A stretch of 64,000 bases of DNA from sequence record MH517022.1; one strand, written 5' to 3'. The DNA is from Acinetobacter phage SH-Ab 15599. The first letter of the stretch is position 1, and each line of letters starts with the position of its first letter. The notes below the pieces were generated by a model, which saw nothing but the letters and a program-made list of their open reading frames with translations, had not been told where the DNA came from and did no database searches. The translations under genes and the position numbers were made by a program. Shown here piece after piece: positions 397-64,000 of this stretch.

Positions 397-425
397 TTTA
401 CTTCAGAATTGAACTACATTATAAC
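397..425 (+). promoter_or_regulatory. Sigma70-like early promoter (TTTACT-N17-TATAAC) pointing into the ORF-free region
   Basis: tttact at 397-402, 17-nt spacer, tataac at 420-425. Same architecture as seven other promoters in the window. Confidence 0.5.
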
Positions 426-1085: not shown

Positions 1086-1169
1086 AATGTAATAACGAGA
1101 GATATTGAATGATGAAACGGTTTGAGAAAAATGGGGAGGTATACCCGTAATTCACACCCCCAGGGGTCA

Positions 1170-1191
1170 ATGCGAGGGCGAAGCCCGAGTA
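1170..1191 (+). repeat. Left copy of the atgcgagggcgaagcccgagta motif (inverted copy at 63897-63918)
   Basis: 22-nt match with one mismatch to the reverse complement of 63897-63918. Confidence 0.7.
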
Positions 1192-1386
1192 TTGACACAT
1201 CGCGAGAAGAAAAAGAAAGCAAAGTAAAAACTACCCTGAAAATCAATCTGCTAAATAATAGTGAAGGGTAGAACGTAGTGAAGATCAATAAACTCACTGC
1301 TGAAATCTATTAAAAATGTAAATAAAGAGTGTTGTTTTTAATTCACTACGTTTTACCCTGTCTCCTCCAATACAATAATAAGTGTT

Positions 1387-1405
1387 CCACACGGTAGGCT
1401 GAGAG
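1387..1405 (+). repeat. ccacacggtaggctgagag motif, copy 1
   Basis: Identical 19-mer at 20383-20401. Near-identical at 35414-35431. Inverted variant at 63851-63869. Confidence 0.8.
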
Positions 1406-1617
1406 TCAAAAATAACACCCAAACTCTACTGTAAATTACAAGCCATAAAAACCCAAAATTAAGATATTATTGTTCATGAACAAAGTGCCCTAATAAAAAT
1501 ACAGAATTGATTTCTGACGTCTTGTTTTTCTTCCCTTATGATAGATTCCACTAAGATATATTCAGCCTTTATATTTCACGATAAAGGGTTATAATTGTTT
1601 CACTCGGAGAAAGACAG

Positions 1618-2310
1618 ATGTCTAAATCAATCACGCTATCTGCTAATACATTGGGTATTTTAAAGGTGGCATCTCAAATTAACAATGCAGTATTGTTCCG
1701 CGCTGGTAATGAAATTAAAGCAACAACAGAATCAGGTATCATCATTCTTCAAGCTACAATCGATGAAGAGTGGCCGCGTGACTTTGCCATTCTTGAGCTC
1801 AATCGTTTATTACAGGTACTGAACCAATCTGCTATGACTGGCGCAGCTCTTCATTTTGAAGACGGTAAAGAGTGTGTTGAAATCAAAGCATCTCGTTCAC
1901 GCGTGCGTTATAACTTCTCTGATATGGAAATGGTTACATCTGTAGACCGTACAATTGTAGTTGAACCTAATGACGTTAATCTCTCTTTTGATTTGAATGA
2001 ACAAACATTAAATGACGTTCGCAAAATGGCGGGTGTATTGGCCCATAGTCATTTACGCATCGAGTGTAAAGACAATACAATTAAACTGATCACTTATGAT
2101 CCAAAATTAGATGACCTGTCTAACGAATATACAACTGAAATTGAAGTTCCAGAAGGCGCTAATTTTGCTGATGGTACTTTCAACATCAAACTTGAAAACA
2201 TGATCTTGTTGCCTGGTTCTCATAAGGTTTCAATTTTTAAAGGCGTTGCTGCTGAATTTGCTCATCAAACTGTGAAAGCAAGTATTTTCATGGGTCTTGA
2301 AAAAATGTAA
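1618..2310 (+). CDS. 45: Sliding clamp (T4 gp45-like)
   Basis: 230 aa. N-terminal and C-terminal blocks align to T4 gp45 by eye. Sits immediately upstream of the gp44 homolog, as in T4. Confidence 0.8.
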   Translation: MSKSITLSANTLGILKVASQINNAVLFRAGNEIKATTESGIIILQATIDEEWPRDFAILELNRLLQVLNQSAMTGAALHFEDGKECVEIKASRSRVRYNFSDMEMVTSVDRTIVVEPNDVNLSFDLNEQTLNDVRKMAGVLAHSHLRIECKDNTIKLITYDPKLDDLSNEYTTEIEVPEGANFADGTFNIKLENMILLPGSHKVSIFKGVAAEFAHQTVKASIFMGLEKM

Positions 2311-14901: not shown

Positions 14902-14925
14902 TCTTCTATAATATAGCGTAACGCC

Positions 14926-14973: not shown

Positions 14974-17900
14974 ATGTCTCAAATTTTTCTAGAAGCATTT
15001 AATAGTCAACCATATGATACCGAGAAGGTTGAAAAGAATGGGTTGATGGATATTGTTTATACATTTCAGGATGAATCAAATAATGAATTTCGTTATCATT
15101 TTGAAAAACGCGTAAACTATGGTCGTAATGTATTTGTTTGTACCCTTGGTCAAAAGACTCCAAATCTAAAAACATACAAGCGCATCTTCTCCAATTTTAA
15201 AAATCCAATGCGTGTAATTGCAACGCTGATTAACATTGTTAAAGACGTACATGCCACTCGTAAAGATGTGAAGGGTATTATCTTTGAGATGCCAACTCAA
15301 GCCTTTGGTGCACACGGTAAATTGGTTGATAAAATCCTAGCTCGTGAATTGCGTTCTGTTATTACTGTTGAAGATATGAATTTCTCTATTGAAGAATTTG
15401 AGAAAATGCAACTTCAAGGTACAGTGACAACAGTGAAGCCTAACCGTATGCAAGATGTGTATACTGGTAAGATCATGAATGATATCTTTGCTCAACGCTC
15501 TGCTGGAACGGCAACAACTCCGGCAAAACAGCCTGTTGAAATGAAGAACATTAACCTCAGTACATTCAAAGCAGCTGCACCTCATGTGCCTCAAGCCGCT
15601 GAACAAAATGCCTCTACTGCCCCGAAGGTTGAAGCTGGTAATCTTAGTGGCCAAACCTTTAAAATCTCTGCTTATGACCGCGTAGAAGGCGCTCGTATGG
15701 AGATTGACTTTGCTAAAGATGATTCCGTCACTATTGGTGGGATCAAACGTCCAATGTCAAATTATCTTACATCTGTTGTAGACAAAGTGTTTGGTTCTCA
15801 ACCAGTTGATACAATCAAGAAGGTTGTAAACAAGTTGGTTGTTGATCTTCATCTCGGTACAGTAGAAATTGCTGACCAATTAGTGAATTTGAAGAAGGTA
15901 TTGGAAAAGGAAGGAGCAAAAGTCTCTCTTGAAACTCCATTCCCAGCTGCTGAAACGTCTCCTGAACCGTTTCCAGGCAGCCAAACTACTGACGGCGTGA
16001 AATTCAACTTCTCTTATGAAACTCATGTTCTCACTATGCCATCTGTTAAGGGCTACGATATTGGTTTAGTTTTGAATCAATTGTTAGGTGCATTCTCAGA
16101 ATCTTTTGAGAAGATGTCAAACAATGCGTATAAGATGGTAAAAGAGGAATTTCCAATTGAAAATTTCCTTGGTTTGTTAGCGAAGGTATCATTCAATAAA
16201 TTGATCGCCACGCGCATTTCCCCTAATTGGAGAAAAATTGTAGATGAAGCAGAGAATGTATACAGTCTATCAACTACATTCTATACATTGGTTGATCCAG
16301 ATTCTGAAAAATTTTTGGATGACTACGGTATCCTTGTTACATTCAAGAAAGATGATGCTGGCGTCTATCGTTTCATGAATTTGCAGTCTAAATCTAAATT
16401 GACAGAAGCAGCTATCAAGAAAGTACAATCTGCAGGAGCTTCAGTTGTTGATCAAGGTATTTCAGTAGCAATTACTGAAGATTGTAATCTTGAAAATAGT
16501 AAGGTTATTGTAGAGTTCATCAAAGCAAGTGACGACGCTTATACATTCGCGAGCCAAAGAGCGATCGATTACAAATTCAACGGTTACAAAGCAACCTACA
16601 AACCGAAGTATGCTGAAGTGAGCGTTCGCTTCAATAATACGCATATCTGCGGTCTTGAAGGGACTCCATTAGGTTCTTGGAACTCTGTTGTTACTAGCGA
16701 TAATACCATTGAATTTCTTATGATCAACAGCATTGAGAAGTTCTATCAATTGATGGATGCTCTCAAAGATTTCAACTTCCCTGAATTGTTGCCAACAGCT
16801 ATTAGAAATGGAAGCCAATACATTGCCGATGTATATGCTACTACTGGTTTGGAACAAGGCGAGAAAATATTCCCGCTTAAATCTGGCGGAGAGCTGAAAG
16901 TGGAGATTTACGGTGGTCTTATCTTCGCTACCATCAGTGGAGCTTCTTTCCCAGTAAATCTCAGACATCCAGAAGTGTTCTTCAACAAAGAGCGCACAAG
17001 CTTCCGTCTTTCTACTCAAGAATACAATACTGATGGCATTAAAGATTTCTTTGCTTCATTTGATGCTTTTATTAATACTCAATTGAACTCGGTTATTGGA
17101 AAAACTAATGAGCCTGTTATCTATGAAGCAACTGGTAAGTTTGAGACCACTGGCGTTGAAATTGTATTGACTCCTAGAGATAAAGTGTCAGCTTCAGTCG
17201 CTAAACAGGTGAAAGAAGTTATCAAAACTGTAGATGATACAGTTGCAGAAGCAGTTCAACCAGTGACTATTGATTTTGATAATCAAGGGCTGATTACCAT
17301 CAAAACAAACAGTATCTTAGCAGCGTATGTTGCTTGTGAACAGTTGATCGAGCAAACGAACAAGATCAGTAACTTTGCTATTATCAAAGTAAAAGAGTTG
17401 TTTGATGCTACTGGTTTCAACAAGAAAAGCCTATCTGTTGAATATAATTTTGAAGTTACTGGCAAAAATTCTGCCAATGTCAAGGTTCCAGCTGGCGCTC
17501 AAAAATCAGTTACAATGATTGCTCATTGTTTAGGGTTCTCTTTGAGTAGTGTTGATAACGGGGTACTTTCATTCCAAGGTGGAAATCCATCAGCTTTACA
17601 TTTTAACATTCATGTTCTTGGTAAACAATTGAAGACTCCGGAACTTTCTACTGATAAACCAGATGTAGTTATTCAGGCAACTAAAACTCTGGCTAAAAAG
17701 GCTCCTAAACTGGATAAAGTACGTCTTAATCCAGAAGCGTACTCATTTACAGCTGACGGGCGAGAGATTGCTCGCGCAGTAAAACGTAAAGTCAAGGGTG
17801 TGGATTCATCTGGTTGGGATGTGAGTGAATTTCAATCTGGAATTTCTCTTACTCAGTACAATTCTGTTGTAACGCTATTCAATGAATTTAAAGCGAAGTA

Positions 17901-18822
17901 CATTGCTTGGTTTATGGAAAATGCGGCTAGTGTTCAGATTCCAGAACTTGACCTTGGTCAATTCTCCACAGTGAAACCTGACGTCAAAGCGGCGTTCAAT
18001 ACTCTTTCTGTGGGTCTTCCGTCTCAAGACCGTGACAACAGTAAAACATTTGAATCAAATGGCGTAATTGTTAAGATTTTTGACAAAGGTGTTTCATTTG
18101 AGTCTGTTACTCCTAAGGGAAGCGTATCAAATATTGAGACTCGTCTGAAAGCTCACGGTTTGAAGACTTCTAAACGTATGGTTGGGGATATTGTTCTCAA
18201 GTTCTCCCGTGGAAGAAACGACTATGAAATGCGTATCAATGAAAATCGCATTATGTTCAAAGGTGTGCCGCAAGGTGTTCCTCATTCAGCTTCAAACTTT
18301 GTCAACGTTCCATCTTCTGTAGCTAATGGAACAGAAGCGCAAAACAACTTGATTAGAGACGGCTTGAGAAAGCTCTACACTGAAGAGGCTCCAGCGGCTC
18401 GTTTCTCTCGCTTCTTAGCTTCTATGTCTAGTCTTAATGAAACAACTAATACAGACGATAGACGTAAATCTCAAGTGACAGTTGACATTGATATGACTAA
18501 GCAAGCGAATGTAGACCTCATCAAGTCAATCCTGTCTCCATCCGGTAAGATGAATGAGTCTATCAAAGAAGATTTGACTGGCGTAGCTCCTAAGCGTAAC
18601 AAAGTTGATAAGAAATTGTTTGAAACTACATTACGCGGTCTAGGGTTCTACCAACCTACATTCTCTTATGGCGGCGCAGGGTTCCAGTTGACTTTGAATG
18701 AAGGTGTAGTTGATATCCTACCAACTTATGGTAATATCGTAAATCTTCAGAAGTTATTGAAGGCTCGTTTGGGCGCTGAGATTGTTACTGATGATCGCGG
18801 CGGCTTAACATTCTGCTTTTAA
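14974..18822 (+). CDS. Large hypothetical protein, 1282 aa, orphan
   Basis: Uninterrupted 3.8-kb ORF with RBS agagga. No recognisable catalytic motif. Occupies the position of primase gene 61 in T4. Confidence 0.6.
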   Translation: MSQIFLEAFNSQPYDTEKVEKNGLMDIVYTFQDESNNEFRYHFEKRVNYGRNVFVCTLGQKTPNLKTYKRIFSNFKNPMRVIATLINIVKDVHATRKDVKGIIFEMPTQAFGAHGKLVDKILARELRSVITVEDMNFSIEEFEKMQLQGTVTTVKPNRMQDVYTGKIMNDIFAQRSAGTATTPAKQPVEMKNINLSTFKAAAPHVPQAAEQNASTAPKVEAGNLSGQTFKISAYDRVEGARMEIDFAKDDSVTIGGIKRPMSNYLTSVVDKVFGSQPVDTIKKVVNKLVVDLHLGTVEIADQLVNLKKVLEKEGAKVSLETPFPAAETSPEPFPGSQTTDGVKFNFSYETHVLTMPSVKGYDIGLVLNQLLGAFSESFEKMSNNAYKMVKEEFPIENFLGLLAKVSFNKLIATRISPNWRKIVDEAENVYSLSTTFYTLVDPDSEKFLDDYGILVTFKKDDAGVYRFMNLQSKSKLTEAAIKKVQSAGASVVDQGISVAITEDCNLENSKVIVEFIKASDDAYTFASQRAIDYKFNGYKATYKPKYAEVSVRFNNTHICGLEGTPLGSWNSVVTSDNTIEFLMINSIEKFYQLMDALKDFNFPELLPTAIRNGSQYIADVYATTGLEQGEKIFPLKSGGELKVEIYGGLIFATISGASFPVNLRHPEVFFNKERTSFRLSTQEYNTDGIKDFFASFDAFINTQLNSVIGKTNEPVIYEATGKFETTGVEIVLTPRDKVSASVAKQVKEVIKTVDDTVAEAVQPVTIDFDNQGLITIKTNSILAAYVACEQLIEQTNKISNFAIIKVKELFDATGFNKKSLSVEYNFEVTGKNSANVKVPAGAQKSVTMIAHCLGFSLSSVDNGVLSFQGGNPSALHFNIHVLGKQLKTPELSTDKPDVVIQATKTLAKKAPKLDKVRLNPEAYSFTADGREIARAVKRKVKGVDSSGWDVSEFQSGISLTQYNSVVTLFNEFKAKYIAWFMENAASVQIPELDLGQFSTVKPDVKAAFNTLSVGLPSQDRDNSKTFESNGVIVKIFDKGVSFESVTPKGSVSNIETRLKAHGLKTSKRMVGDIVLKFSRGRNDYEMRINENRIMFKGVPQGVPHSASNFVNVPSSVANGTEAQNNLIRDGLRKLYTEEAPAARFSRFLASMSSLNETTNTDDRRKSQVTVDIDMTKQANVDLIKSILSPSGKMNESIKEDLTGVAPKRNKVDKKLFETTLRGLGFYQPTFSYGGAGFQLTLNEGVVDILPTYGNIVNLQKLLKARLGAEIVTDDRGGLTFCF

Positions 18823-18919: not shown

Positions 18920-20308
18920 ATGAACGTTCATGAAATAATTCAAGCAACAAAGGCTGCTAAAGGTTCAAACAATAAGATTGGATTGTTGAACAATAACAGC
19001 AATAACAAATTGTTGGAAAACTTTTTGGCCACAACATATGATACCCGTGTATCATTTTATGTAAACAAATTTACAATGGGGGAACCCTCTGTTCAAGCCT
19101 ATGACGATATTGAAGTTGAGAATATGCTAGACTTCGTTCAATCATTGTCAGAACGCTTACTCACTGGTAACGCTGCCTTAGAAGCAATTACAGAGTTTAC
19201 TGGTCAATTGTCTGCTGAAGGTCAATCTTTATTCAACATGTTGATCAAACGCGACATTAAAGCAGGTGTTGCTGCAGGTACATTAATCAAAGTCTGGCCA
19301 AAGTCTATTTTTATTGAACCGTATCAACGTTGCTGTCTTGCTAAAGATACCAAAACTGATCTTCGTAACTGGGGCATGTATATCTCTCAGTTGAAGGCTG
19401 ACGGGATGTTCTCTTCTGCTAGTTGTTCAACTGAAATTGGTCATATTGCAAGCCGCGCTGGTACAATCTACCCTAAGAGTGCAGCATTTGATTTGGTGAA
19501 CTCAGAATTACAATCGCACGCTCATTTGGAAGCATTTCCAGGGGTTCTGGTTGGAGATTGTACTGTTGAAGGTGAGTTGATTGTTGTAAAAGATGGTAAA
19601 GAGTTACTCCGCGCTGAATCAAACGGTATGTTGAACTCATTACAACAGTCTGGCGAAGCTCTGCCTGAAGGTTATGACCTTGTTTATCATGTTTGGGATA
19701 TCCTTCCAACTGCGCGACGTACCTATAAGGGTACATTCAATGTAGCTTACAAACAACGCTTTGACGTAATTGAACGTTTGTTCGGTCAGGCTGGTGTCCG
19801 CGTGAAACCAATTGAAACCAAATTCTTCAATACATATGCTGAATGTGTGGCGCACTTCTTGGAAACAATCGGTCTTGGAAAAGAAGGTACAATCATCAAA
19901 CATCCATCAGCAACTTGGATGGACGGCGATAACCCTCTCCAAATCAAGATGAAGATTGAAGCTGAGTGTGAGCTACGTGTGAAAGGTTTCAATCCAGCTG
20001 AAGAAGCCTCGAAGTATGAACATCAATTTGGATCATTACAGTGTGAATCAGAAGATGGTTTGTTGGCAGTAGGCGTTTCATCTGGTTTGACTGACGCAAT
20101 GCGTACTGAACTTCATGCTATGGGAGACTCTCTGATTGAGTGCGTCATTACAGTTAAGTTTAATGACGTCATGCTTCCTAAAGAAGATCAAAACAAACAT
20201 AGTCTATTCCTACCTCGATTCGTTGAGTTGCGCCTAGATAAATCTTCAGCCGACTCGCTTCCACGTATTTTTGACATCTTTGAAGACGCTAAAAAGAATG
20301 CTTCGTGA
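18920..20308 (+). CDS. 30: ATP-dependent DNA ligase
   Basis: Adenylation motif KADG within SQLKADGMF. Size of about 460 aa resembles T4 gp30. Start placed at the ATG after ggag. Confidence 0.8.
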   Translation: MNVHEIIQATKAAKGSNNKIGLLNNNSNNKLLENFLATTYDTRVSFYVNKFTMGEPSVQAYDDIEVENMLDFVQSLSERLLTGNAALEAITEFTGQLSAEGQSLFNMLIKRDIKAGVAAGTLIKVWPKSIFIEPYQRCCLAKDTKTDLRNWGMYISQLKADGMFSSASCSTEIGHIASRAGTIYPKSAAFDLVNSELQSHAHLEAFPGVLVGDCTVEGELIVVKDGKELLRAESNGMLNSLQQSGEALPEGYDLVYHVWDILPTARRTYKGTFNVAYKQRFDVIERLFGQAGVRVKPIETKFFNTYAECVAHFLETIGLGKEGTIIKHPSATWMDGDNPLQIKMKIEAECELRVKGFNPAEEASKYEHQFGSLQCESEDGLLAVGVSSGLTDAMRTELHAMGDSLIECVITVKFNDVMLPKEDQNKHSLFLPRFVELRLDKSSADSLPRIFDIFEDAKKNAS

Positions 20309-20328
20309 GTGAGCAATAATTACTAAAA

Positions 20329-20401
20329 TCCATAAAAATTGCCCTGTTATTAACAGGGCTTTTTAGTGGTATTTTTAATGTTCCACACGGTAGGCTGAGA
20401 G
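20329..20401 (+). repeat. Composite intergenic element: tccataaaaattgc, terminator hairpin, spacer, ccacacggtaggctgagag
   Basis: Hairpin gccctgttattaacagggc plus T run at 20341-20365 (terminator for the ligase gene). Motif at 20383-20401. Same arrangement at 35359-35431 and, degenerate, at 51106-51180. Confidence 0.7.
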
Positions 20402-20528: not shown

Positions 20529-20831
20529 ATGATTTCACTAGATACATTTCAAGCTCAAGTTCTTTTATCAATCGCACGTTGTTCTGATGTGAACAAGAAG
20601 GGCATAAGAATGGATGACCTTGCGTCTAAAGAAGACATTGAAACTAAAGACTATGGCTCTGCCCGCGTTGCTAAGATGGTTGGTTGTAATTATACCGTTT
20701 TAACTGAAACAATCAATTTTCTTCAACAAGAAGGATATATCAACTCAGTTGAACGCAGAAATGGAAAAGTCCTTATGATGTTTACTGATAAAGGCTACAA
20801 AATGATTAAAGAAATGGTAGCAGCAGCTTAA
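20529..20831 (+). CDS. Small putative winged-helix DNA-binding protein
   Basis: 100 aa. Pattern resembles MarR-like or winged-helix proteins. Weak call. Confidence 0.4.
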   Translation: MISLDTFQAQVLLSIARCSDVNKKGIRMDDLASKEDIETKDYGSARVAKMVGCNYTVLTETINFLQQEGYINSVERRNGKVLMMFTDKGYKMIKEMVAAA

Positions 20832-29626: not shown

Positions 29627-30300
29627 GAAAGAGTATGGATGGTTTATTATTGTTGCGGGAATCCACTGACCAAGTGGAAATTTTACGTGAAAATACTGCC
29701 ACTGGCTCAGCGATGTACATTGAAGGTCCTTTCATCAGCTGCAACATGAAAAACCGAAATGGGCGCGTTTACCCTCGTTCAATGATGGAAGCTGTAGTTG
29801 ATCAATATCAACGTGAATACATTAATGAACGCAGAGCTATTGGTGAGTTTATTCACCCTGAATACCCATATCCAAACCCAAAAATGGCTGCTCTTCGTAT
29901 TGACTCTTTAACTTGGCAGGGCGATCTTGTTATCGGTAAAGCCAAAGTTTTAGAAGGTATGGAAGATGGTAAAAAATTGAAGACTCTCATCGAAGAGGGT
30001 TTCAAGCTAGGTGTTTCAACTCGCGGCTTAGGTAAACTGGCTCGTGACAAGGTCACCGTTGAACAATATCGAATGAATGCGGTTGATGCTGTTGATTTAC
30101 CGTCTGGTCAACCTTGTTACTTTGATGTTGTTAATGAATCCGCTCTGTGGTACCCTACAGAGACGGGTGGTTGGGTTCAACGTAATGAAGATGGTCATAT
30201 CATTAATGAAGCCGATGATGCTGCGCAAGTAGCAGAATTCAATATGGATTCATTTTTGAAACGACTTGATGAAGCTCTTCATCAAAAGATTTATCGTTGA
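29623..30300 (+). CDS. 21: Prohead core protease (gp21-like)
   Basis: NRNGRVYPRSMMEAVVDQY matches T4 gp21 NRNGRIYPKDLMEKAIEEY. Confidence 0.8.
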   Translation: MRKSMDGLLLLRESTDQVEILRENTATGSAMYIEGPFISCNMKNRNGRVYPRSMMEAVVDQYQREYINERRAIGEFIHPEYPYPNPKMAALRIDSLTWQGDLVIGKAKVLEGMEDGKKLKTLIEEGFKLGVSTRGLGKLARDKVTVEQYRMNAVDAVDLPSGQPCYFDVVNESALWYPTETGGWVQRNEDGHIINEADDAAQVAEFNMDSFLKRLDEALHQKIYR

Positions 30301-34166: not shown

Positions 34167-34715
34167 CTAGACGCCGCCATATGCCTTTACGCTTACGAGT
34201 TTCACGCCACTGTTGAGATGCTTCTTCAGAATAGTCTCAATAGGTTTAGCATCAGCCTTTCCAGCCTTCTGTTGTTTACCCGCTTCTTTGAGAAGATCAT
34301 TGATAACTTTTTCATCAAAACAGAGTTCAATGTCAGCTCTCTTACCAACAGGGCGTTTGCTACCTGCATACAACTGTACCTGAACATCGGAGATATACAG
34401 AGCAAAGTCTTCATCTCCTTTTAATACAGCTAAGAACGTTCCTGCTCTCACAGTTGCTTCTGTCAGGCCATCTTCCCCTTCATCATCTTCATCCCCGTCT
34501 TTATCTTCTTGCAACTGATAAGACAACACTGAATCTGTCATCACACCGCCGTCATTGATTGCCTTTTGAATAAGACGCAATGCAGACTTATTTTGAGACT
34601 TGAACGACACAGATGATTCAGATAGATGAACCTGTACGCCGCCGCCAAAGAATTGAAGAGTCGGTTTGTTCCAACCTTTGGATTCAAGAAGGGTTTTCAT
34701 TGCAGAGTATTTCAT
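34167..34715 (-). CDS. Hypothetical protein, 182 aa
   Basis: Last ORF of the minus arm. Acidic DGDEDDEGEDG tract. Confidence 0.45.
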   Translation of the reverse strand: MKYSAMKTLLESKGWNKPTLQFFGGGVQVHLSESSVSFKSQNKSALRLIQKAINDGGVMTDSVLSYQLQEDKDGDEDDEGEDGLTEATVRAGTFLAVLKGDEDFALYISDVQVQLYAGSKRPVGKRADIELCFDEKVINDLLKEAGKQQKAGKADAKPIETILKKHLNSGVKLVSVKAYGGV

Positions 34716-35158: not shown

Positions 35159-35341
35159 TTAATGCTCCTTTTTCTTTCCAACAACTATCATAACAGTGCG
35201 CCGATATCCGGTGGTATAATCTTTAACCGATTTTGGTTTTCCATTCCACTTATACCATCCACCACCTTTGATATCATTCAGATCAGTACCTTTTGCAACT
35301 TCAGTCGTATTCATTTCTTTCTCCGCTTCGTCTTTGTTCAT
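35159..35341 (-). CDS. Hypothetical small protein, 60 aa
   Basis: Short ORF. Weak call. Confidence 0.3.
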   Translation of the reverse strand: MNKDEAEKEMNTTEVAKGTDLNDIKGGGWYKWNGKPKSVKDYTTGYRRTVMIVVGKKKEH

Positions 35342-35358
35342 GATCAGTATATCCTAAA

Positions 35359-35431
35359 TTCCATAAAAATTGCTCTGATATATACAGAGCAATTTGACTG
35401 TATTTTATATGTCCCACACGGTAGGCTGAGA
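35359..35431 (+). repeat. Composite element copy 2 (tccataaaaattgc, hairpin gctctgatatatacagagc, cccacacggtaggctgaga)
   Basis: Same order and orientation on the plus strand as the copy at 20329-20401, although the flanking genes here are on the minus strand. Confidence 0.7.
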
Positions 35432-35436
35432 CATAG

Positions 35437-35994
35437 TTAATTCTCTGTATCTACTGGCTTGCAAAGATATGTATCGGGATACTCTTGCACAGAGTTTATA
35501 TCCATAGCATATTTCGCAGGGCGTTGACCAAGAATTTTGAGTGGAGGCGCATTCCCAGATTCACTAATACACTCTCCAAACTGATTATACATTCGCATTT
35601 GCTCAGTTGGATCTTCAAATACAACAACGTATTCATTTGTACGGAAAGATTGGACTTTCGAAACAATTAAGGTCTTTCTGTTCTTCTGAATGATCTGTTG
35701 TCCATCTTGAAGTTTATCCATGTCAACCATCTTCCAGCCCATATCATATCCTTGTATAGTGAAGATATTCAAGGCAGGTATGTCCATAGCAACTTTACCG
35801 CGTTCATCTACAATGATTCTGAACGAAGTTTGGTCATCTTTGGTATTCTCCCCATTATAGAGAACCAACTTCAAATCATAGAGGGCGTAAGTGTCTTTGA
35901 CATTATTAGTCTTGTTTCTTTCCTTAACAAGATAGATTCCAGCATCTGTGGACACTGTAGTTACATTGGGAACGAAATCAGCTACATTAACCAT
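35437..35994 (-). CDS. Hypothetical protein, 185 aa. Tandem paralog B
   Basis: VADFVPNVTTVSTDAGIYLVKE and EYVVVFEDPTEQMRMYN parallel the upstream paralog EDFVPNLTRVKLKNGHIYLIKE and YYIVFEDENMVIMSYD. Confidence 0.5.
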   Translation of the reverse strand: MVNVADFVPNVTTVSTDAGIYLVKERNKTNNVKDTYALYDLKLVLYNGENTKDDQTSFRIIVDERGKVAMDIPALNIFTIQGYDMGWKMVDMDKLQDGQQIIQKNRKTLIVSKVQSFRTNEYVVVFEDPTEQMRMYNQFGECISESGNAPPLKILGQRPAKYAMDINSVQEYPDTYLCKPVDTEN

Positions 35995-39185: not shown

Positions 39186-39721
39186 GAGCGTCTCACCAAG
39201 AATGCACCTTTGTTACCAACAGTTTCAACGTCATGCGGGTAAATGGTTTTAAACCATTTGTTTTCTGGAATTGGAACGCCGCCTGTAACACAACCTTCAA
39301 CGCGCACATTCTCTACAAATGAACCGTCAGGGAGATATGTAGGTTTATTGGCGAAATAGATTTGTTTACCGTCAGCTTGTACAGCTAGGAATCTGTAACG
39401 CTTACTTGGAGCGTATCTGAACAAGTCTCTATCCCATTCAGGTTCTGGCGGTTGTTCTATTTCAATTTGACAGATATGACTAATAGGAATGATATGATCT
39501 GGAAAATCTTCTTCAGGCTTGTTAGGGGTTGGAGAGTATTTCCAAGCGCCCTTTTCATAAAGCAGATGAAGAACCTGACTACAAGAACCTAGACAGATGT
39601 AATGACCTTCGTCAATTTCATCTTCTGGTGAATATTCTTTGAATAGAAGCATTTTACCCTCGTTAGGAGTTAGCAATTTAATGGAATTATAATGTAATAG
39701 AGGTCTATAGACAAAAATCAA
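39182..39721 (-). CDS. Hypothetical protein, 179 aa
   Basis: ORF with overlapping stop and start. Confidence 0.45.
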   Translation of the reverse strand: MIFVYRPLLHYNSIKLLTPNEGKMLLFKEYSPEDEIDEGHYICLGSCSQVLHLLYEKGAWKYSPTPNKPEEDFPDHIIPISHICQIEIEQPPEPEWDRDLFRYAPSKRYRFLAVQADGKQIYFANKPTYLPDGSFVENVRVEGCVTGGVPIPENKWFKTIYPHDVETVGNKGAFLVRRS

Positions 39722-41249: not shown

Positions 41250-41394
41250 TTTGAAAACCTCTTATAACAATTAGCGTTATCATATTGTATTGTCTAAACC
41301 ATATCAAATAATCAATGAATTGTTTTAGCCAATCCAACCCTCAGAATGAGTGATTTTAACAATTAAAATTTTATAGTATTTTTTAATTTGATTA

Positions 41395-41423
41395 TTTACT
41401 TTTCATGAATCATCCATTATAAT
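41395..41423 (+). promoter_or_regulatory. Early promoter TTTACT-N17-TATAAT upstream of the HU-like gene
   Basis: Perfect -10. Leader ends acttttggagaaatgac before the ATG. Confidence 0.55.
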
Positions 41424-41490
41424 GGATTTCCATAACAAGGGAATAATTCTCTGTTTACTTTAAATGTCAAACAACTTTTGGAGAAATGAC

Positions 41491-41766
41491 ATGAACCGTA
41501 CTGACTTAATCGCTGCTGTAGCAAAAGAAACTGGTAACACTCAAGCTGTTGTTGAAGCTGTAATTAAAGCATCTGAAGGTAAAATTGCTGAAGCCCTAAT
41601 TGCTGGCGAAAACGTACAACTTGTTGGCTTTGGTACTTTTAAATCAACGCCTAAAGAAGCAACAACTGCTCGTAACCCTAAAACTGGCGAAGAAGTGGCA
41701 GTTGCAGCTACAAACCGCGTTACATTCAGCGTTTCAGATGCTCTGAAAGAACGTTTGAAAAAATAA
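41491..41766 (+). CDS. HU or IHF-family (DNABII) DNA-binding protein
   Basis: MNRTDLIAAVAKETG...GENVQLVGFGTFKSTPKEATTARNPKTGEEVAVAATNRVTF is the canonical HU signature (GFGTF, R.ARNP.TGE). Confidence 0.8.
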   Translation: MNRTDLIAAVAKETGNTQAVVEAVIKASEGKIAEALIAGENVQLVGFGTFKSTPKEATTARNPKTGEEVAVAATNRVTFSVSDALKERLKK

Positions 41767-51020: not shown

Positions 51021-51105
51021 TAATCTCCAATGGAATGACGTATTATAATAGAAAAATAATCACTATTATAAAAACAACTTTGTGAGTGGACAAAATTTTT
51101 CTAAA

Positions 51106-51180
51106 TCCATAAAAAATGCCCTGTAGGAATCAGGGCGAAAGGTGTGTTATTTTAACAAGACACACGGTAGTGCGGTACAG
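51106..51180 (+). repeat. Degenerate composite element copy 3 (tccataaaaaat, hairpin gccctgtaggaatcagggc, cacacggtag)
   Basis: Same plus-strand orientation. The hairpin with an upstream A-tract acts as the minus-strand terminator for the 51181 gene. Confidence 0.55.
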
Positions 51181-59514: not shown

Positions 59515-60996
59515 TCAAATTTGCATCATTATAGAATTAATTGGATGCCCTTCTTCAACATAGATGCTCAGACGTTCTCCGGCAAATTCCATTGACTTGT
59601 TCTTCTTGCCACTGAATTGCATAATATCAAAGATATCATAGATATAAGCAATATCTTTTGAATCATGCAGACGCAATAGACGACCAATGGATTGTTGAAT
59701 TGAAATGTTAGTCTTTCTAGGGTGAGCATATACCAAGTTATGAAGCTTCTTGATACTGATACCAGTTGAGGTTGTACCATAGGTTGCTAACAGAACAATA
59801 TCATCTCCGCGTTCAATGATAGCTTTGATATCATCCCGTTCTTCAACTTTGATATCTCCATGAATAACAAAATGGTAAACGCCCTTCTCAGTAAGCTTAG
59901 CACTGATTATTTCAATATGCTCAATGTTATTGAATAAGAATAGGCTATTTCCTTTCAGTCTTGATGCAAGGCGTACAATAACATCATTACGAGGTTCATA
60001 CTCAATAAGAAAGTCCATCTCGTCTCTATAGTTTGGATTATTACGCCACTTTCTTCTCACTTCTGTCGGATATTCCAATCCAATCATGTTAACAACGGTT
60101 TTAGTGGCTAATCCTCTGTCTTGAAGTTCTTTTGTTGAGATGAGACGTAATGAGTCACCAAAATGTTTAGCAACCTTCATTCTATGATCTTCACTGTTAC
60201 GTCTTAATGTAGCAGTTAGACCTAGACGTTGCCAACAGTTGATACAGTTATTAGCAATATTATCAAGAGTGTCAGAACCGAAAGTGTGAGCTTCATCTCC
60301 CATAAGGAAATTGAACCCATAAAAATACTCTCTTTCTTGCTTCCCAAGAGTTTGCCAAGTGCAGATGATAATCTGTTTTCTTGAATAAGGAGATACGCCG
60401 TCACCAGCCTTATGACAATTCATATCTACTGACCAATTAGAGTCATGAGATGAATAATCTCCAAAGTCAGCGTATGTCTGATTCACTAATTGTAAAGTTG
60501 GGACAACAATAAGAATCTTGCCTTCCTCTCCCATCATCTCTTGCCAAAATCTACAACATAGATATTGTAATAGAGTCTTACCAGCAGATGTAGCAGCCAA
60601 AGCCAAATATCTTGAATACTTGATACTGTTGTATAGACCTTCTACTTGGTAGTCATAAGGAGTTATTTTGTTACCGCCGCTTCTAATATCAAGATTGTCA
60701 ACCCATTCTTGAATATCTTTGCGCTCGATTGGTCTGATGATTTCTTTAATACATTCCTGGATGTCTGCTTTTTCTTCGTATAATTTACAATAACTGAGAA
60801 CCATGGATAACATACCAGATGGAAATGTTCCATTTTTTCTATTGAACAGGCGCTTCTTTCCATCCCATTTTGAGAATTGATTTTGTTGGAACTCTGGTTC
60901 CTTATATCTCATTTCTTCGTACAAGCTCTGAATCAGACTCTCATTATCGGTCTCAATAAAGAATGTACTTGCATTTACAGCGCCGATATAAGCCAT
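59515..60996 (-). CDS. uvsW: UvsW-like SF2 helicase
   Basis: Walker A motif ATSAGKT and the DEAH box LMGDEAHTF. 493 aa, like T4 UvsW. Confidence 0.8.
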   Translation of the reverse strand: MAYIGAVNASTFFIETDNESLIQSLYEEMRYKEPEFQQNQFSKWDGKKRLFNRKNGTFPSGMLSMVLSYCKLYEEKADIQECIKEIIRPIERKDIQEWVDNLDIRSGGNKITPYDYQVEGLYNSIKYSRYLALAATSAGKTLLQYLCCRFWQEMMGEEGKILIVVPTLQLVNQTYADFGDYSSHDSNWSVDMNCHKAGDGVSPYSRKQIIICTWQTLGKQEREYFYGFNFLMGDEAHTFGSDTLDNIANNCINCWQRLGLTATLRRNSEDHRMKVAKHFGDSLRLISTKELQDRGLATKTVVNMIGLEYPTEVRRKWRNNPNYRDEMDFLIEYEPRNDVIVRLASRLKGNSLFLFNNIEHIEIISAKLTEKGVYHFVIHGDIKVEERDDIKAIIERGDDIVLLATYGTTSTGISIKKLHNLVYAHPRKTNISIQQSIGRLLRLHDSKDIAYIYDIFDIMQFSGKKNKSMEFAGERLSIYVEEGHPINSIMMQI

Positions 60997-62846: not shown

Positions 62847-63066
62847 TAGAGACTTCCTTGATCAATTTATCAACTTCATGAATTGCTTCTGTTATTGTAT
62901 TCTTGAAGATTGCTTTACCGCCTTTTACATTTTGAATTCTGAACGATTCAAGTGTAGTTGGATAATAAGAGTTATCAACATGGTTTGAAATAACATAGTC
63001 GCCTTTCTTGAAAGAACCCTTATGCGTAATTCTCCAACCATCTAATGAGATTTCTTTAATTTTCAT
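62839..63066 (-). CDS. Hypothetical protein, 75 aa
   Basis: ORF overlapping the start of the downstream gene. Confidence 0.35.
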   Translation of the reverse strand: MKIKEISLDGWRITHKGSFKKGDYVISNHVDNSYYPTTLESFRIQNVKGGKAIFKNTITEAIHEVDKLIKEVSNV

Positions 63067-63417
63067 AATAAAGTTCCGTAACGTTCATCAACCATTCTCT
63101 ATCACTACTCTCATTGACTGGCCATATTCAACTACCATCGTTCAAGAGAATGTTTTCAACTGAAGGGTTATTACTATTGTTCTCAGTCTGGTCTTGAACG
63201 GTAATAACCGCAGCCCCTTCTCGGCAACTGTTAATCTACAAACCTGAACCACCTCACTTTTCATGTCTACACAATATAATTTCATTGATAGACCCCAGCT
63301 ATTGGATAGTAACCTTACTTCAGCCTCTGTTGATGAATCTAAGATATAGCACCTATCATAGTATCATATCTCGACCGTATATAAAATCAAATAAAAAAGA
63401 GGCTTGCGCCTCTTTCT

Positions 63418-63699
63418 TTACTTCTTACAGTCTTTCTTTGTTGACCGTTCTTTACATTTGTCCGATGTAGTAGACCTATAAGGGATTGGAACAGTCGTAG
63501 GAGCTTTATACACTGTAGGTTTATAAGGGGCAGCAGCTTTGGGTGCAGGTACACTGGCTCGTACACTAGGGCTTGGAGCAATCACTACTCTTGCAGAAGC
63601 TCCGGCAAACCCAACTGCGTGAGCTACAGTTGAGAATGCAATAGCGCACATTACTGATACGGCTGGAAATACAATTCTTAAAAATTTTGGAACGTACAT
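63418..63699 (-). CDS. Small secreted Pro/Ala-rich protein (signal peptide)
   Basis: MYVPKFLRIVFPAVSVMCAIAFSTVAHA signal-like N-terminus. RBS aggag. Hairpin terminator at 63396-63416. Confidence 0.4.
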   Translation of the reverse strand: MYVPKFLRIVFPAVSVMCAIAFSTVAHAVGFAGASARVVIAPSPSVRASVPAPKAAAPYKPTVYKAPTTVPIPYRSTTSDKCKERSTKKDCKK

Positions 63700-63850
63700 G
63701 ATTGACTCCTATAAAGAACTTCTATAATAAGGCTGGAAACGTTCATTTATTATAAATCAATAATTCGTTGGCTTTGTTCATGAACAAAAATATTTAAAAT
63801 TGTCTTTTTATTGTCTGGAATTAACAAAGGAGTTTGATTGTTATTTTTGT

Positions 63851-63869
63851 CTCTCAGCCTACCCTGTGG
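63851..63869 (-). repeat. Inverted variant of the ccacacggtaggctgagag motif (ccacagggtaggctgagag on the minus strand)
   Basis: The reverse complement of 63845-63875 reads cgccacagggtaggctgagagacaaaaataaca, compared with tccacacggtaggctgagagtcaaaaataaca at 1386-1417. Confidence 0.7.
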
Positions 63870-63896
63870 CGAGAGTCATTTTGCTGTACTCGGTAA

Positions 63897-63918
63897 TACT
63901 CGGGCTGCGCCCTCGCAT
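63897..63918 (-). repeat. Inverted copy of the atgcgagggcg(a/c)agcccgagta motif
   Basis: The reverse complement gives atgcgagggcgcagcccgagta, compared with atgcgagggcgaagcccgagta at 1170-1191. Confidence 0.7.
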
Positions 63919-64000
63919 CACCTCAAAACCTGTTGCGGTGAGCAATCGGGAATAGGAACCACCCTTTCTCAGATTCTTCTCTTGAATACATAACCGACCA

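Follow-up and report, generated by a model that had tools for sequence, protein, structure and literature searches.

Paired inverted non-coding modules as candidate regulatory leaders of two converging gene blocks in Acinetobacter phage SH-Ab 15599

The first 64 kb (64,000 nucleotides; here called the window) of the 143,204-bp genome of Acinetobacter phage SH-Ab 15599 (sequence record MH517022.1) carry two related non-coding elements, one near each end and in inverted orientation. We propose that the two copies are paralogous cis-regulatory leader modules heading converging blocks of replication and nucleotide-metabolism genes, a reading to which we assign an even chance. Each module is part of a long non-coding region that heads its gene arm, just upstream of a member of a strongly over-represented class of promoter-like sequences, and this arrangement is kept in the closest relative, Acinetobacter phage nACB2 (OQ032512, 136.6 kb). 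A sequence-only reading of the window had offered several explanations for the pair: transcription or replication signals heading each arm, structured noncoding RNA (ncRNA) genes, or repeats that mediate inversion of the 62.7-kb segment between them. The first is the best-supported direction, with transcription control favored and replication origins left at a low probability.

Both motifs that had defined the pair were found at the positions given for them and were absent from shuffled sequences. Motif 1, ATGCGAGGGCGAAGCCCGAGTA, occupies positions 1170-1191 on the plus strand and recurs with one mismatch at 63918-63897 on the minus strand. These were the only two matches in the window at up to three mismatches, and 100 shuffles produced none. 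The core of motif 2, CACACGGTAGGCTGAGAG, lies at 1388-1405 (+) and, again with one mismatch, at 63868-63851 (-), with no match expected in shuffled sequence. The left motifs are separated by 194 nt and the right ones by 25 nt, as previously described, and both copies point inward, the left one toward the sliding clamp gene gp45 (1618, +) and the right one toward an open reading frame (ORF) at 63699 (-). The convergence of the two arms was borne out by the ORF list and the nACB2 annotation alike, with plus-strand genes running from 1618 to about 35.1 kb and minus-strand genes from 63,699 to about 35.2 kb. The neighbor of gp45 in the left arm is the clamp loader. The head of the right arm consists of a small secreted-type ORF (no family match), an unannotated 74-aa ORF, a NADAR-domain protein, and a helicase.

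Alignment showed that the similarity of the copies is not limited to the two short motifs. Positions 1387-1485 and 63869-63772 were 82% identical over 99 nt (pairwise BLAST E = 1e-21). A further sequence, GAGAAA(R)GGG (box A), precedes motif 1 by 35-45 nt in both copies (1124 and 63970) and occurs once per non-coding region in both SH-Ab 15599 and nACB2. A perfect 14-bp palindrome, TTGTTCATGAACAA, is identical at 1470 and 63787-63774 and is found nowhere else in the window. The order of elements common to both copies is box A, a hairpin formed by motif 1, box B (motif 2), an AT-rich tract, the palindrome, a TTGATT-N24/25-TATNAT site, and the first gene (Table 1); the right copy is cut by the window end 30 nt past box A. 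The left AT-rich tract also includes a small palindrome, CTGTAAATTACA, and has TTGTTCATGAACAA (1470-1483) as its final element. We considered TTGTTCATGAACAA as a widespread operator and rejected this, as it is perfect only in the left and right copies, and its weaker matches (18 versus 9.35 expected) fall mostly within coding sequence and were taken as noise.

The modules form the arm-proximal part (230-420 nt) of the long non-coding regions. The left module is the final 500 nt of a 1.5-kb stretch (106-1617) without conserved coding capacity, in whose small ORFs tblastx detected no conserved coding signal and among which no convincing ORF linked to a ribosome-binding site was found. The right module opens a non-coding region that continues past the window end. 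The search for the same pair in related genomes that the sequence-only reading had called for was successful, as nACB2 has modules at both orthologous sites. Its non-coding regions there measure 1.45 kb and 1.2 kb, and each starts with an inward consensus promoter, CTTTACTT-N16-TATAAT. Both then carry box A, the hairpin (missing from the right copy), box B, the AT-rich tract, a TCATGA-centered palindrome, the promoter, and the gene, in this order. The G+C content of the non-coding regions is 31-35%, as opposed to 38-39% for the genomes.

Acinetobacter phage nACB2 was the sole close match among 50,697 phage records, with about 68% nucleotide identity to the window across replication genes and 60% amino acid identity in gp45. 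The comparison set consisted of its full genome and five relatives from public assemblies. L006 is almost identical to nACB2 and covers its circular junction; L010, L011, and L012 come from the same IMG/VR metagenome and are 88-98% identical to nACB2; L009, with a 65% identical gp45, offers upstream sequence limited to 240 nt. Since most of these relatives lie near nACB2, there are effectively only two independent lineages, and covariation statistics are therefore weak. Scans of metagenomes and GTDB with gp45 gave distant relatives or none, exact-pattern scans of IMG/VR with both motifs gave no matches, and BLAST of the module and of one cassette against the 50,697 phage records returned nACB2 only. 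Literature naming SH-Ab 15599 or nACB2, as far as searched, does not describe the non-coding elements. The two phages represent a poorly studied clade that is distantly allied to Ackermannviridae, infects Acinetobacter baumannii, and is relevant to phage therapy and for hypermodified DNA.

On its sense strand, motif 1 folds into a hairpin. The lower stem has 8 bp, one of them a conserved G.U, and is followed by a 2x2 internal loop of tandem G.A, a GC stem of 2-4 bp, and a triloop; in the left hairpin the GC stem has 4 bp and the triloop is GAA. The sense strand of the left copy folded at -18.9 kcal/mol (z = -5.4) and the opposite strand at -11.5 kcal/mol (z = -2.9). The corresponding values for the right copy were -19.1 kcal/mol (z = -5.6) on the minus strand, which is the sense strand there, and -8.1 kcal/mol (z = -0.8) on the plus strand. 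For the left copy of nACB2 they were -12.0 kcal/mol (z = -4.3) and -4.1 kcal/mol (z = -0.4). The two outermost stem pairs have changed on both sides with pairing kept among the left and right copies of the window, nACB2, and L010. Such asymmetry in predicted folding would be expected if the element were read as RNA, or as sense-strand single-stranded DNA, and it argues for inward transcription of the leader.

The suggestion that the copies are structured ncRNA genes fared less well. The strand-specific hairpin of motif 1 fits an RNA, but the tract from box B to the palindrome is unstructured, the copies are not marked as separate RNA genes, and Rfam gave no match. Specifically, no match was obtained for the whole window at the gathering threshold, and permissive E-values yielded only chance-level, sub-threshold matches in both regions. 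One of the candidates, MIR408, merely reflects a long hairpin in the left copy and was discarded. No tRNA or tmRNA genes were found in the window. Conserved pairing was absent from the box B-to-palindrome tract on either strand, which favors recognition of the sequence itself. Pairing of box A with box B or with CCUCC-like tracts amounted on manual inspection to just 4-5 bp and was not conserved.

The greater length of the left copy had been put down to a 170-bp A-rich insert. The segment in question (1194-1386) is rather a conserved module, found also in the left copies of nACB2, L006, and L010. It opens with GCTAAATAATAGTG and contains a late-promoter-like motif directly 5' of a long hairpin. 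In nACB2 the corresponding hairpin likewise follows the CTAAATAATAGTG anchor at this position, and its 16 perfectly complementary pairs were extended by hand to 16+4 bp, yet its arm sequences are unrelated to those in the window; the hairpin is thus conserved in structure and not in sequence. A C-to-T difference in L010 keeps the pairing solely as G.U on the sense strand. Related motifs precede structural genes in both phages in the form CATAAATA or ACTAAATA(AT): the major capsid gene of either phage is preceded by ACTAAATAAT, and baseplate, tube, and tailspike genes by CATAAATA. The sites are at 14925, 20885, 27011, 31134, and 1251 in the window and at 29845, 93659, 115587/115600, 130313, and 133172 in nACB2. 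The T4 late promoter is TATAAATA, and this sequence does not occur in the whole 64-kb window. The pattern suggests that (C/A)(A/C)TAAATA may be a variant late promoter of the SH-Ab 15599/nACB2 clade. A late transcript would then begin at the foot of the long hairpin, and the clamp operon would receive late mRNA with a protective 5' stem-loop.

We compared the two copies with each other and with those of nACB2. From box B to the palindrome, the left and right copies of SH-Ab 15599 were 81% identical, whereas those of nACB2 were only 50% identical and the orthologs in the two phages 50-55%. As the paralogs are closer than the orthologs, one copy was overwritten by the other after the split of SH-Ab 15599 and nACB2. 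The likeness of the left and right copies in SH-Ab 15599 is thus attributable to recent gene conversion or replacement between the inverted copies. The presence of the tandem-G.A hairpin in the right copy of the window and not in that of nACB2 fits gene conversion. A second contrast concerns L010 and nACB2, whose left modules were 98.2% identical over the 556-nt stretch that begins with box A and ends at the gp45 start (L010 3441-3996, nACB2 560-1116), compared with 92.2% for the gp45 coding sequence and 77-88% for the 5' part of the left non-coding region. Either strong constraint or recent exchange would account for this.

The repeats might instead exist for programmed or frequent inversion of the 62.7-kb segment. 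The copies are indeed inverted and 82% identical over 99 nt, and they have exchanged sequence since the split from nACB2. However, the window and nACB2 are collinear, and order and orientation are the same in nACB2 and three metagenomic relatives: L006, L010 (left junction), and L012 (right junction), each of which agrees with nACB2 on the side it covers; the L012 contig ends inside the right non-coding region. The sequence-only reading had called for evidence of inversion between isolates; a single orientation was seen in this small sample. No invertase or recombinase is annotated in nACB2, and only part of the window ORFs were scanned for one. Moreover, the nACB2 copies, at about 50% identity, are too diverged for homologous exchange and the arrangement was kept anyway, and many features of the modules have an obvious regulatory reading. 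We therefore regard a dedicated inversion system as very improbable. Inversion may be an occasional by-product of recombination; nothing suggests that it is a function of the repeats.

Motif 2 kept only part of its status as an end-bracketing element, since it is present at both ends but further copies lie inside the window. As box B it has five copies there: left, right, 20384 (+), 35415 (+), and a degenerate one at 51161 (+). A profile built from 11 copies and run on the SH-Ab 15599 window and nACB2 returned 12 sites, several of them orthologous in position. For 10 of these 12 a hairpin was located whose end lies 21-31 nt before box B, the distance being 23-25 nt for the dispersed cassettes; none was found upstream at nACB2 71698 or 34416. 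The three dispersed hairpin + box B cassettes of the window are about 100 nt long and 64-100% identical. Their GC stems are flanked by A- or T-runs, and the hairpins beside box B in the left and right copies lack a proper T-run.

The dispersed cassettes sit at the boundaries of transcription units. The one after the ligase gene has a hairpin of the bidirectional terminator type, an ortholog at nACB2 18790, and a further copy in L011. At the junction of the arms, the box B at 35415 abuts the stop codon of the minus-strand gene 35437-35994, and the analogous nACB2 cassette at 84118 lies at the other convergent junction of that genome. The degenerate cassette, just upstream of uvsY (UvsY by Pfam), has a hairpin with its T-run on the minus strand and an ortholog at nACB2 47856. 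Further nACB2 copies are found at 34416 and at 71698, where box B stands directly before a start codon and overlaps the ribosome-binding site. A -10-like TA is present at +10/+11 in about half of the box B copies, the left and right ones not among them. Judged by these positions and their conservation, box B is a conserved, putative recognition sequence tied to hairpins at transcription-unit boundaries.

A gene for a winged-helix protein (20529-20831, +) lies immediately downstream of the ligase cassette. Its product is 24% identical to its positional ortholog in nACB2, as opposed to 60-67% for gp45, ligase, and helicase. This apparently fast-evolving DNA-binding protein is a candidate reader of box B or the palindrome. 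Other identities of box B were tried and rejected. A T7-like promoter for a phage single-subunit RNA polymerase would call for such an enzyme; the only large protein without assignment, of 1282 aa, lacks polymerase motifs and matched nothing in Pfam or PDB. The ORF encoding it (14974-18822, +) lies between the helicase and ligase genes with a late-promoter-like CATAAATA upstream, and is conserved with its 1093-aa nACB2 counterpart only in the first ~177 and last ~103 residues. Reading box B as two GGTAG half-sites in direct repeat was weakened by L011, in which the second half-site is changed. A DnaA box (TGTTCCACA) was dismissed when the flanking bases proved not to be kept in other copies.

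Box B lies on the plus strand in 10 of its 12 copies whatever the local gene direction, the exceptions being both right-hand copies. This strand preference, the length of the motif (~19 nt), and the handful of copies per genome recall a strand-specific DNA site, such as a site-specific single-strand nick of the T5/phiKMV-like kind that would let the sliding clamp enter and activate T4-type late transcription. The phiKMV-type nick consensus is similar in motif length and in copies per genome, and the phage has a T4-type clamp and clamp loader. The bias is, however, not significant when orthologs are counted once (6 of 7 independent loci), both right-hand copies are on the other strand, and neither a nicking enzyme nor any hint of nicks was identified. 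A nick site is thus highly improbable.

In the minus arms, box B in reverse complement stands directly after a stop codon and ahead of a hairpin with its T-run on the minus strand, and there the hairpin looks like the sense terminator. The same arrangement (35415 and 51161; nACB2 47856 and 84118) would fit small RNAs (sRNAs), or RNAs derived from 3' untranslated regions, that consist of an antisense CUCUCAGCCUACCGUGUGG seed, about 24 nt, and a terminator hairpin and that pair with sense box B in the leaders of both arms and in other 5' regions. Sense copies are available at the left and right modules, at 20384, and at nACB2 71698, and in the nACB2 47856 hairpin the minus strand gives the better pairing, U.G replacing C.A. 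Conserved seeds with variable terminator stems are typical of sRNA families. Against this, no credible promoter precedes the reverse-complement box in the left or right module (the -35/-10-like spacers are just 13-15 nt), the right hairpin has no U-tail in the antisense direction, Rfam gave no match, and the strand pattern is based on about seven independent loci. We consider box B as an sRNA mark quite improbable.

The promoter-like sequences fall into distinct classes. The class TTTACTT-N16-TAWWAY had 5 matches in the window versus 0.19 expected. The candidate in the left non-coding region is oriented inward across it, and the nACB2 record opens at its perfect orthologous copy, CTTTACTT-N16-TATAAT, which is also found in L006 and L010. 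The class TTGATT-N23-25-TATDAT had 13 matches versus 0.36 expected. These are located at 1507, 9940, 12196, 18859, and 41388 on the plus strand and at 39721, 41315, 44026, 51251, 56590, 59518, 63390, and 63760 on the minus strand. All 10 sites checked, including the left and right ones, were co-oriented with the downstream gene, and many directly follow a terminator hairpin whose T-run is TTGATTTT. The TTGATT-N24 class, with its unusually long spacer, may be the middle-mode promoter class of the clade.

These elements would combine into a leader module as follows. An early sigma70-type promoter about 1 kb upstream would send a non-coding leader transcript inward. The leader RNA would carry box A and the very stable hairpin with tandem G.A and a GNA triloop, which would serve it as a protein-binding, processing, stabilizing, or read-through element. 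Box B would follow as a 19-nt recognition sequence, which at least three further hairpin + box cassettes carry at the boundaries of transcription units. After the unstructured AT-rich tract, the 14-bp palindrome would be a likely operator for a dimeric regulator, and the TTGATT-N24-TATNAT promoter would drive the first gene of each arm. With the same signal set on both, the arms could be switched on or off together.

Several observations weigh against control of transcription by the modules. The right copy of nACB2 is without the tandem-G.A hairpin, which is thus not indispensable for the right-hand module. The 98% conservation of the left module could stem from recent recombinational exchange rather than selection. 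A sigma70 consensus scan did not detect the box B core CCACACGGTAGGCTG, and all promoters reported here are consensus matches. Finally, box B is directed opposite to local transcription at 35415, 51161, and nACB2 34416, 47856, and 84118; its orientation is thus not consistently sense, and a single role at the level of transcription fails for some copies.

Alternatively, the modules could be origins of replication of the T4 oriF/oriG type, in which a promoter sends a transcript into the easily unwound AT-rich tract and a persistent R-loop there primes inward leading-strand synthesis. In favor of this, the AT-rich tract behind box B is conserved and lacks structure on either strand, and the non-coding regions have a lower G+C content than the genomes. 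One box B cassette lies just upstream of uvsY, and T4 ori(uvsY) is located upstream of uvsY. The GC skew turns from negative to positive at both non-coding regions and back to negative at the convergent junctions. However, GC skew tracks the coding strand everywhere and thus does not discriminate between the origin and transcription readings. Iterons and repeat arrays are absent from the non-coding regions, and there is no conserved DnaA box, the overlap of TGTTCCACA with box B being lost in other copies. Transcription control is the simpler explanation of the strand-specific hairpins and of the promoter directly before the first gene. Thus, origins at these sites appear unlikely.

A more specific mechanism would have the long leader RNAs reprogram RNA polymerase through their tandem-G.A hairpin and box A, as in nut/put-type processive antitermination, or prime replication as R-loops, with box B as the address of a factor. 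We consider it rather unlikely. If true, the two non-coding regions of 1.2-1.6 kb would be dedicated control centers of an undescribed kind for a T4-type phage, and a phage-specific factor, which elsewhere in the genome also marks the boundaries of operons, would have box B as its address on DNA or RNA. Only if the antitermination or the origin reading proved true would a new principle of biology follow. Should the modules coordinate both replication arms, as we propose, they would offer handles for engineering or attenuating the phage and an example of concerted evolution of inverted regulatory copies. The analysis also provides a first signal map of the clade, comprising early, TTGATT-N24-TATAAT, and late promoter types, the hairpin + box B cassette, and the matched leaders.

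Table 1. Features of the two modules, the dispersed cassettes, and the adjoining signals in the window
Feature	Position	Strand	Basis or remark
Early-type sigma70-like promoter candidate TTTACTT-N16-TATAAC	397..425	+	Consensus match
Box A, left, purine-rich GAGAAAAATGGGG	1124..1136	+	Aligned across the non-coding regions of both phages
Leader hairpin, left (motif 1)	1166..1196	+	RNA fold; paired changes across relatives
Late-promoter-like motif GCTAAATAAT, left copy only	1249..1258	+	Conserved at same position in nACB2
Long hairpin, A-rich loop of ~59 nt	1265..1359	+	18-bp arms 1265-1282 and 1342-1359; 94% complementary
Box B, left CCACACGGTAGGCTGAGAG (motif 2)	1387..1405	+	Pattern and profile matches
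AT-rich conserved tract, left	1406..1485	+	82% identity to right copy; conserved blocks in five sequences
Promoter-like TTGATT-N24-TATGAT	1507..1542	+	~75 nt upstream of gp45
First left-arm gene, T4 gp45-type sliding clamp	1618..2310	+	100% identity to SHAb15599_00003; tblastn matches to annotated gp45 clamps
Hairpin + box B cassette after DNA ligase gene	20301..20401	+	Hairpin 20341-20359, 24-nt spacer, box B
Hairpin + box B cassette, arm convergence junction	35332..35432	+	Repeat comparison
Degenerate hairpin + box B cassette	51078..51177	+	Between minus-strand ORF and uvsY
Promoter-like TTGATT-N25-TATTAT	63724..63760	-	Upstream of first right-arm ORF (63699-63418)
AT-rich conserved tract, right	63772..63850	-	Ends in TTGTTCATGAACAA (63774-63787)
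Box B, right CCACAGGGTAGGCTGAGAG	63851..63869	-	25-27 nt past hairpin
Leader hairpin, right	63892..63922	-	Same architecture, GCA triloop; RNA fold
Box A, right GAGAAAGGGTG	63960..63970	-	One copy per non-coding region

Other elements were noted in the window and its relatives. A conserved non-coding leader of about 300 nt is found at 63064-63362 (-) in the window, 60534-60835 (-) in nACB2, and 775-1110 in L012, between a terminator/promoter and the gene at 63066. It contains an invariant Shine-Dalgarno-like GAAAAGTGAGGTGGTTCA. Its consensus fold has 12 pairs with changes on both sides and a long-range stem in which GAAAAGTGAGGTGGTTCA is paired with the region just before the downstream start codon. 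On the strength of this predicted fold, it is a candidate structured cis-regulatory RNA. Two pairs of terminator repeats (32542-32570/33603-33631 and 34129-34159/40183-40213; 93-94% identity) form GC hairpins with symmetric A and T runs, are bidirectional, and are distinct from the box B cassettes. A divergent intergenic region (41279-41464) precedes the gene of an HU-type DNA-binding protein (41464-41766), whose promoter fits both the TTGATT-N24 and the TTTACTT-N16 patterns, with TTCATGAATCA in the spacer.

Positions 1-105 of the window, at the apparent start of the GenBank record, consist of 105 A in a row, which is most probably an artifact of the assembly or of the record end and not biology. 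In L006 and L010, the left non-coding region runs on into a tailspike/lipase gene across the circular junction. Two independent metagenomic contigs of more distant relatives, L007 (1-195) and L009 (1-148), end less than 200 nt upstream of gp45, the L009 end being close to the expected position of box B. These ends could be assembly breaks at a repeated element, or a coincidence.

The box B cassettes are best compared with PeSL/PmSL, the terminator-promoter composite cassettes of T4-like phages (Arbiol et al. 2010, PMC2839356; Comeau et al. 2014, PMC4122927). Like these, they are repeats of about 100 bp between genes, join a stem-loop (here a putative terminator) to conserved transcription signals, are dispersed in a phage with a T4-type replication module, and are similar enough within a genome to recombine. 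Both the box B cassettes and the hairpin-TTGATTTT-N-TATAAT sites fit the PeSL/PmSL description. However, the box B core CCACACGGTAGGCTG is neither a sigma70 (-35/N17/-10) nor a MotA-type promoter, and there is no TGCTT Mot box. With only five copies per 64 kb, box B is also far rarer than PeSL. The cassettes occupy conserved core positions (ligase, uvsY, arm junctions) instead of hyperplastic ORFan regions, and these positions are kept between phages of just 60-68% nucleotide identity. The left and right modules further add RNA hairpins, box A, and the palindrome, all of which are absent from PeSL.

The modules share other features with the T4 origins ori(uvsY)/oriF and ori(34)/oriG, namely a promoter followed by a little-structured AT-rich tract in a phage with T4-type replication proteins, and one box B cassette adjoins uvsY. 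Unlike the T4 origins, the modules show no Mot box, MotA is not annotated in nACB2, and box B at uvsY is directed away from the gene. Invertible segments of the Hin/Gin/Cin type differ in that no recombinase gene lies beside either repeat here, and a single orientation is seen among the relatives, a small sample.

Lambda nutL/nutR and HK022 putL/putR likewise come as pairs of related, oppositely oriented copies, with one copy in the leader of each of two operons after an early promoter, although leader transcription on the SH-Ab 15599 side of this comparison is inferred from consensus promoters only. Both systems join a linear box to a hairpin that is small, very stable, and purine-looped, and nut and put work as RNA. 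Yet box A here (GAGAAAGGGGTG) has no sequence match to the nut boxA (CGCTCTTTA), the hairpin has a GAA or GCA triloop with tandem G.A in place of the GNRA-like pentaloop of nut boxB or the two specific stem-loops of put, and element order and spacing differ. The arms converge here, whereas a common control region with arms diverging from it is the rule for nut/put, and the hairpin is missing from the nACB2 right copy. Overall, although the defining sequence features of both are missing, the modules resemble T4-type cassettes and, more loosely, the lambda nut sites in their logic.

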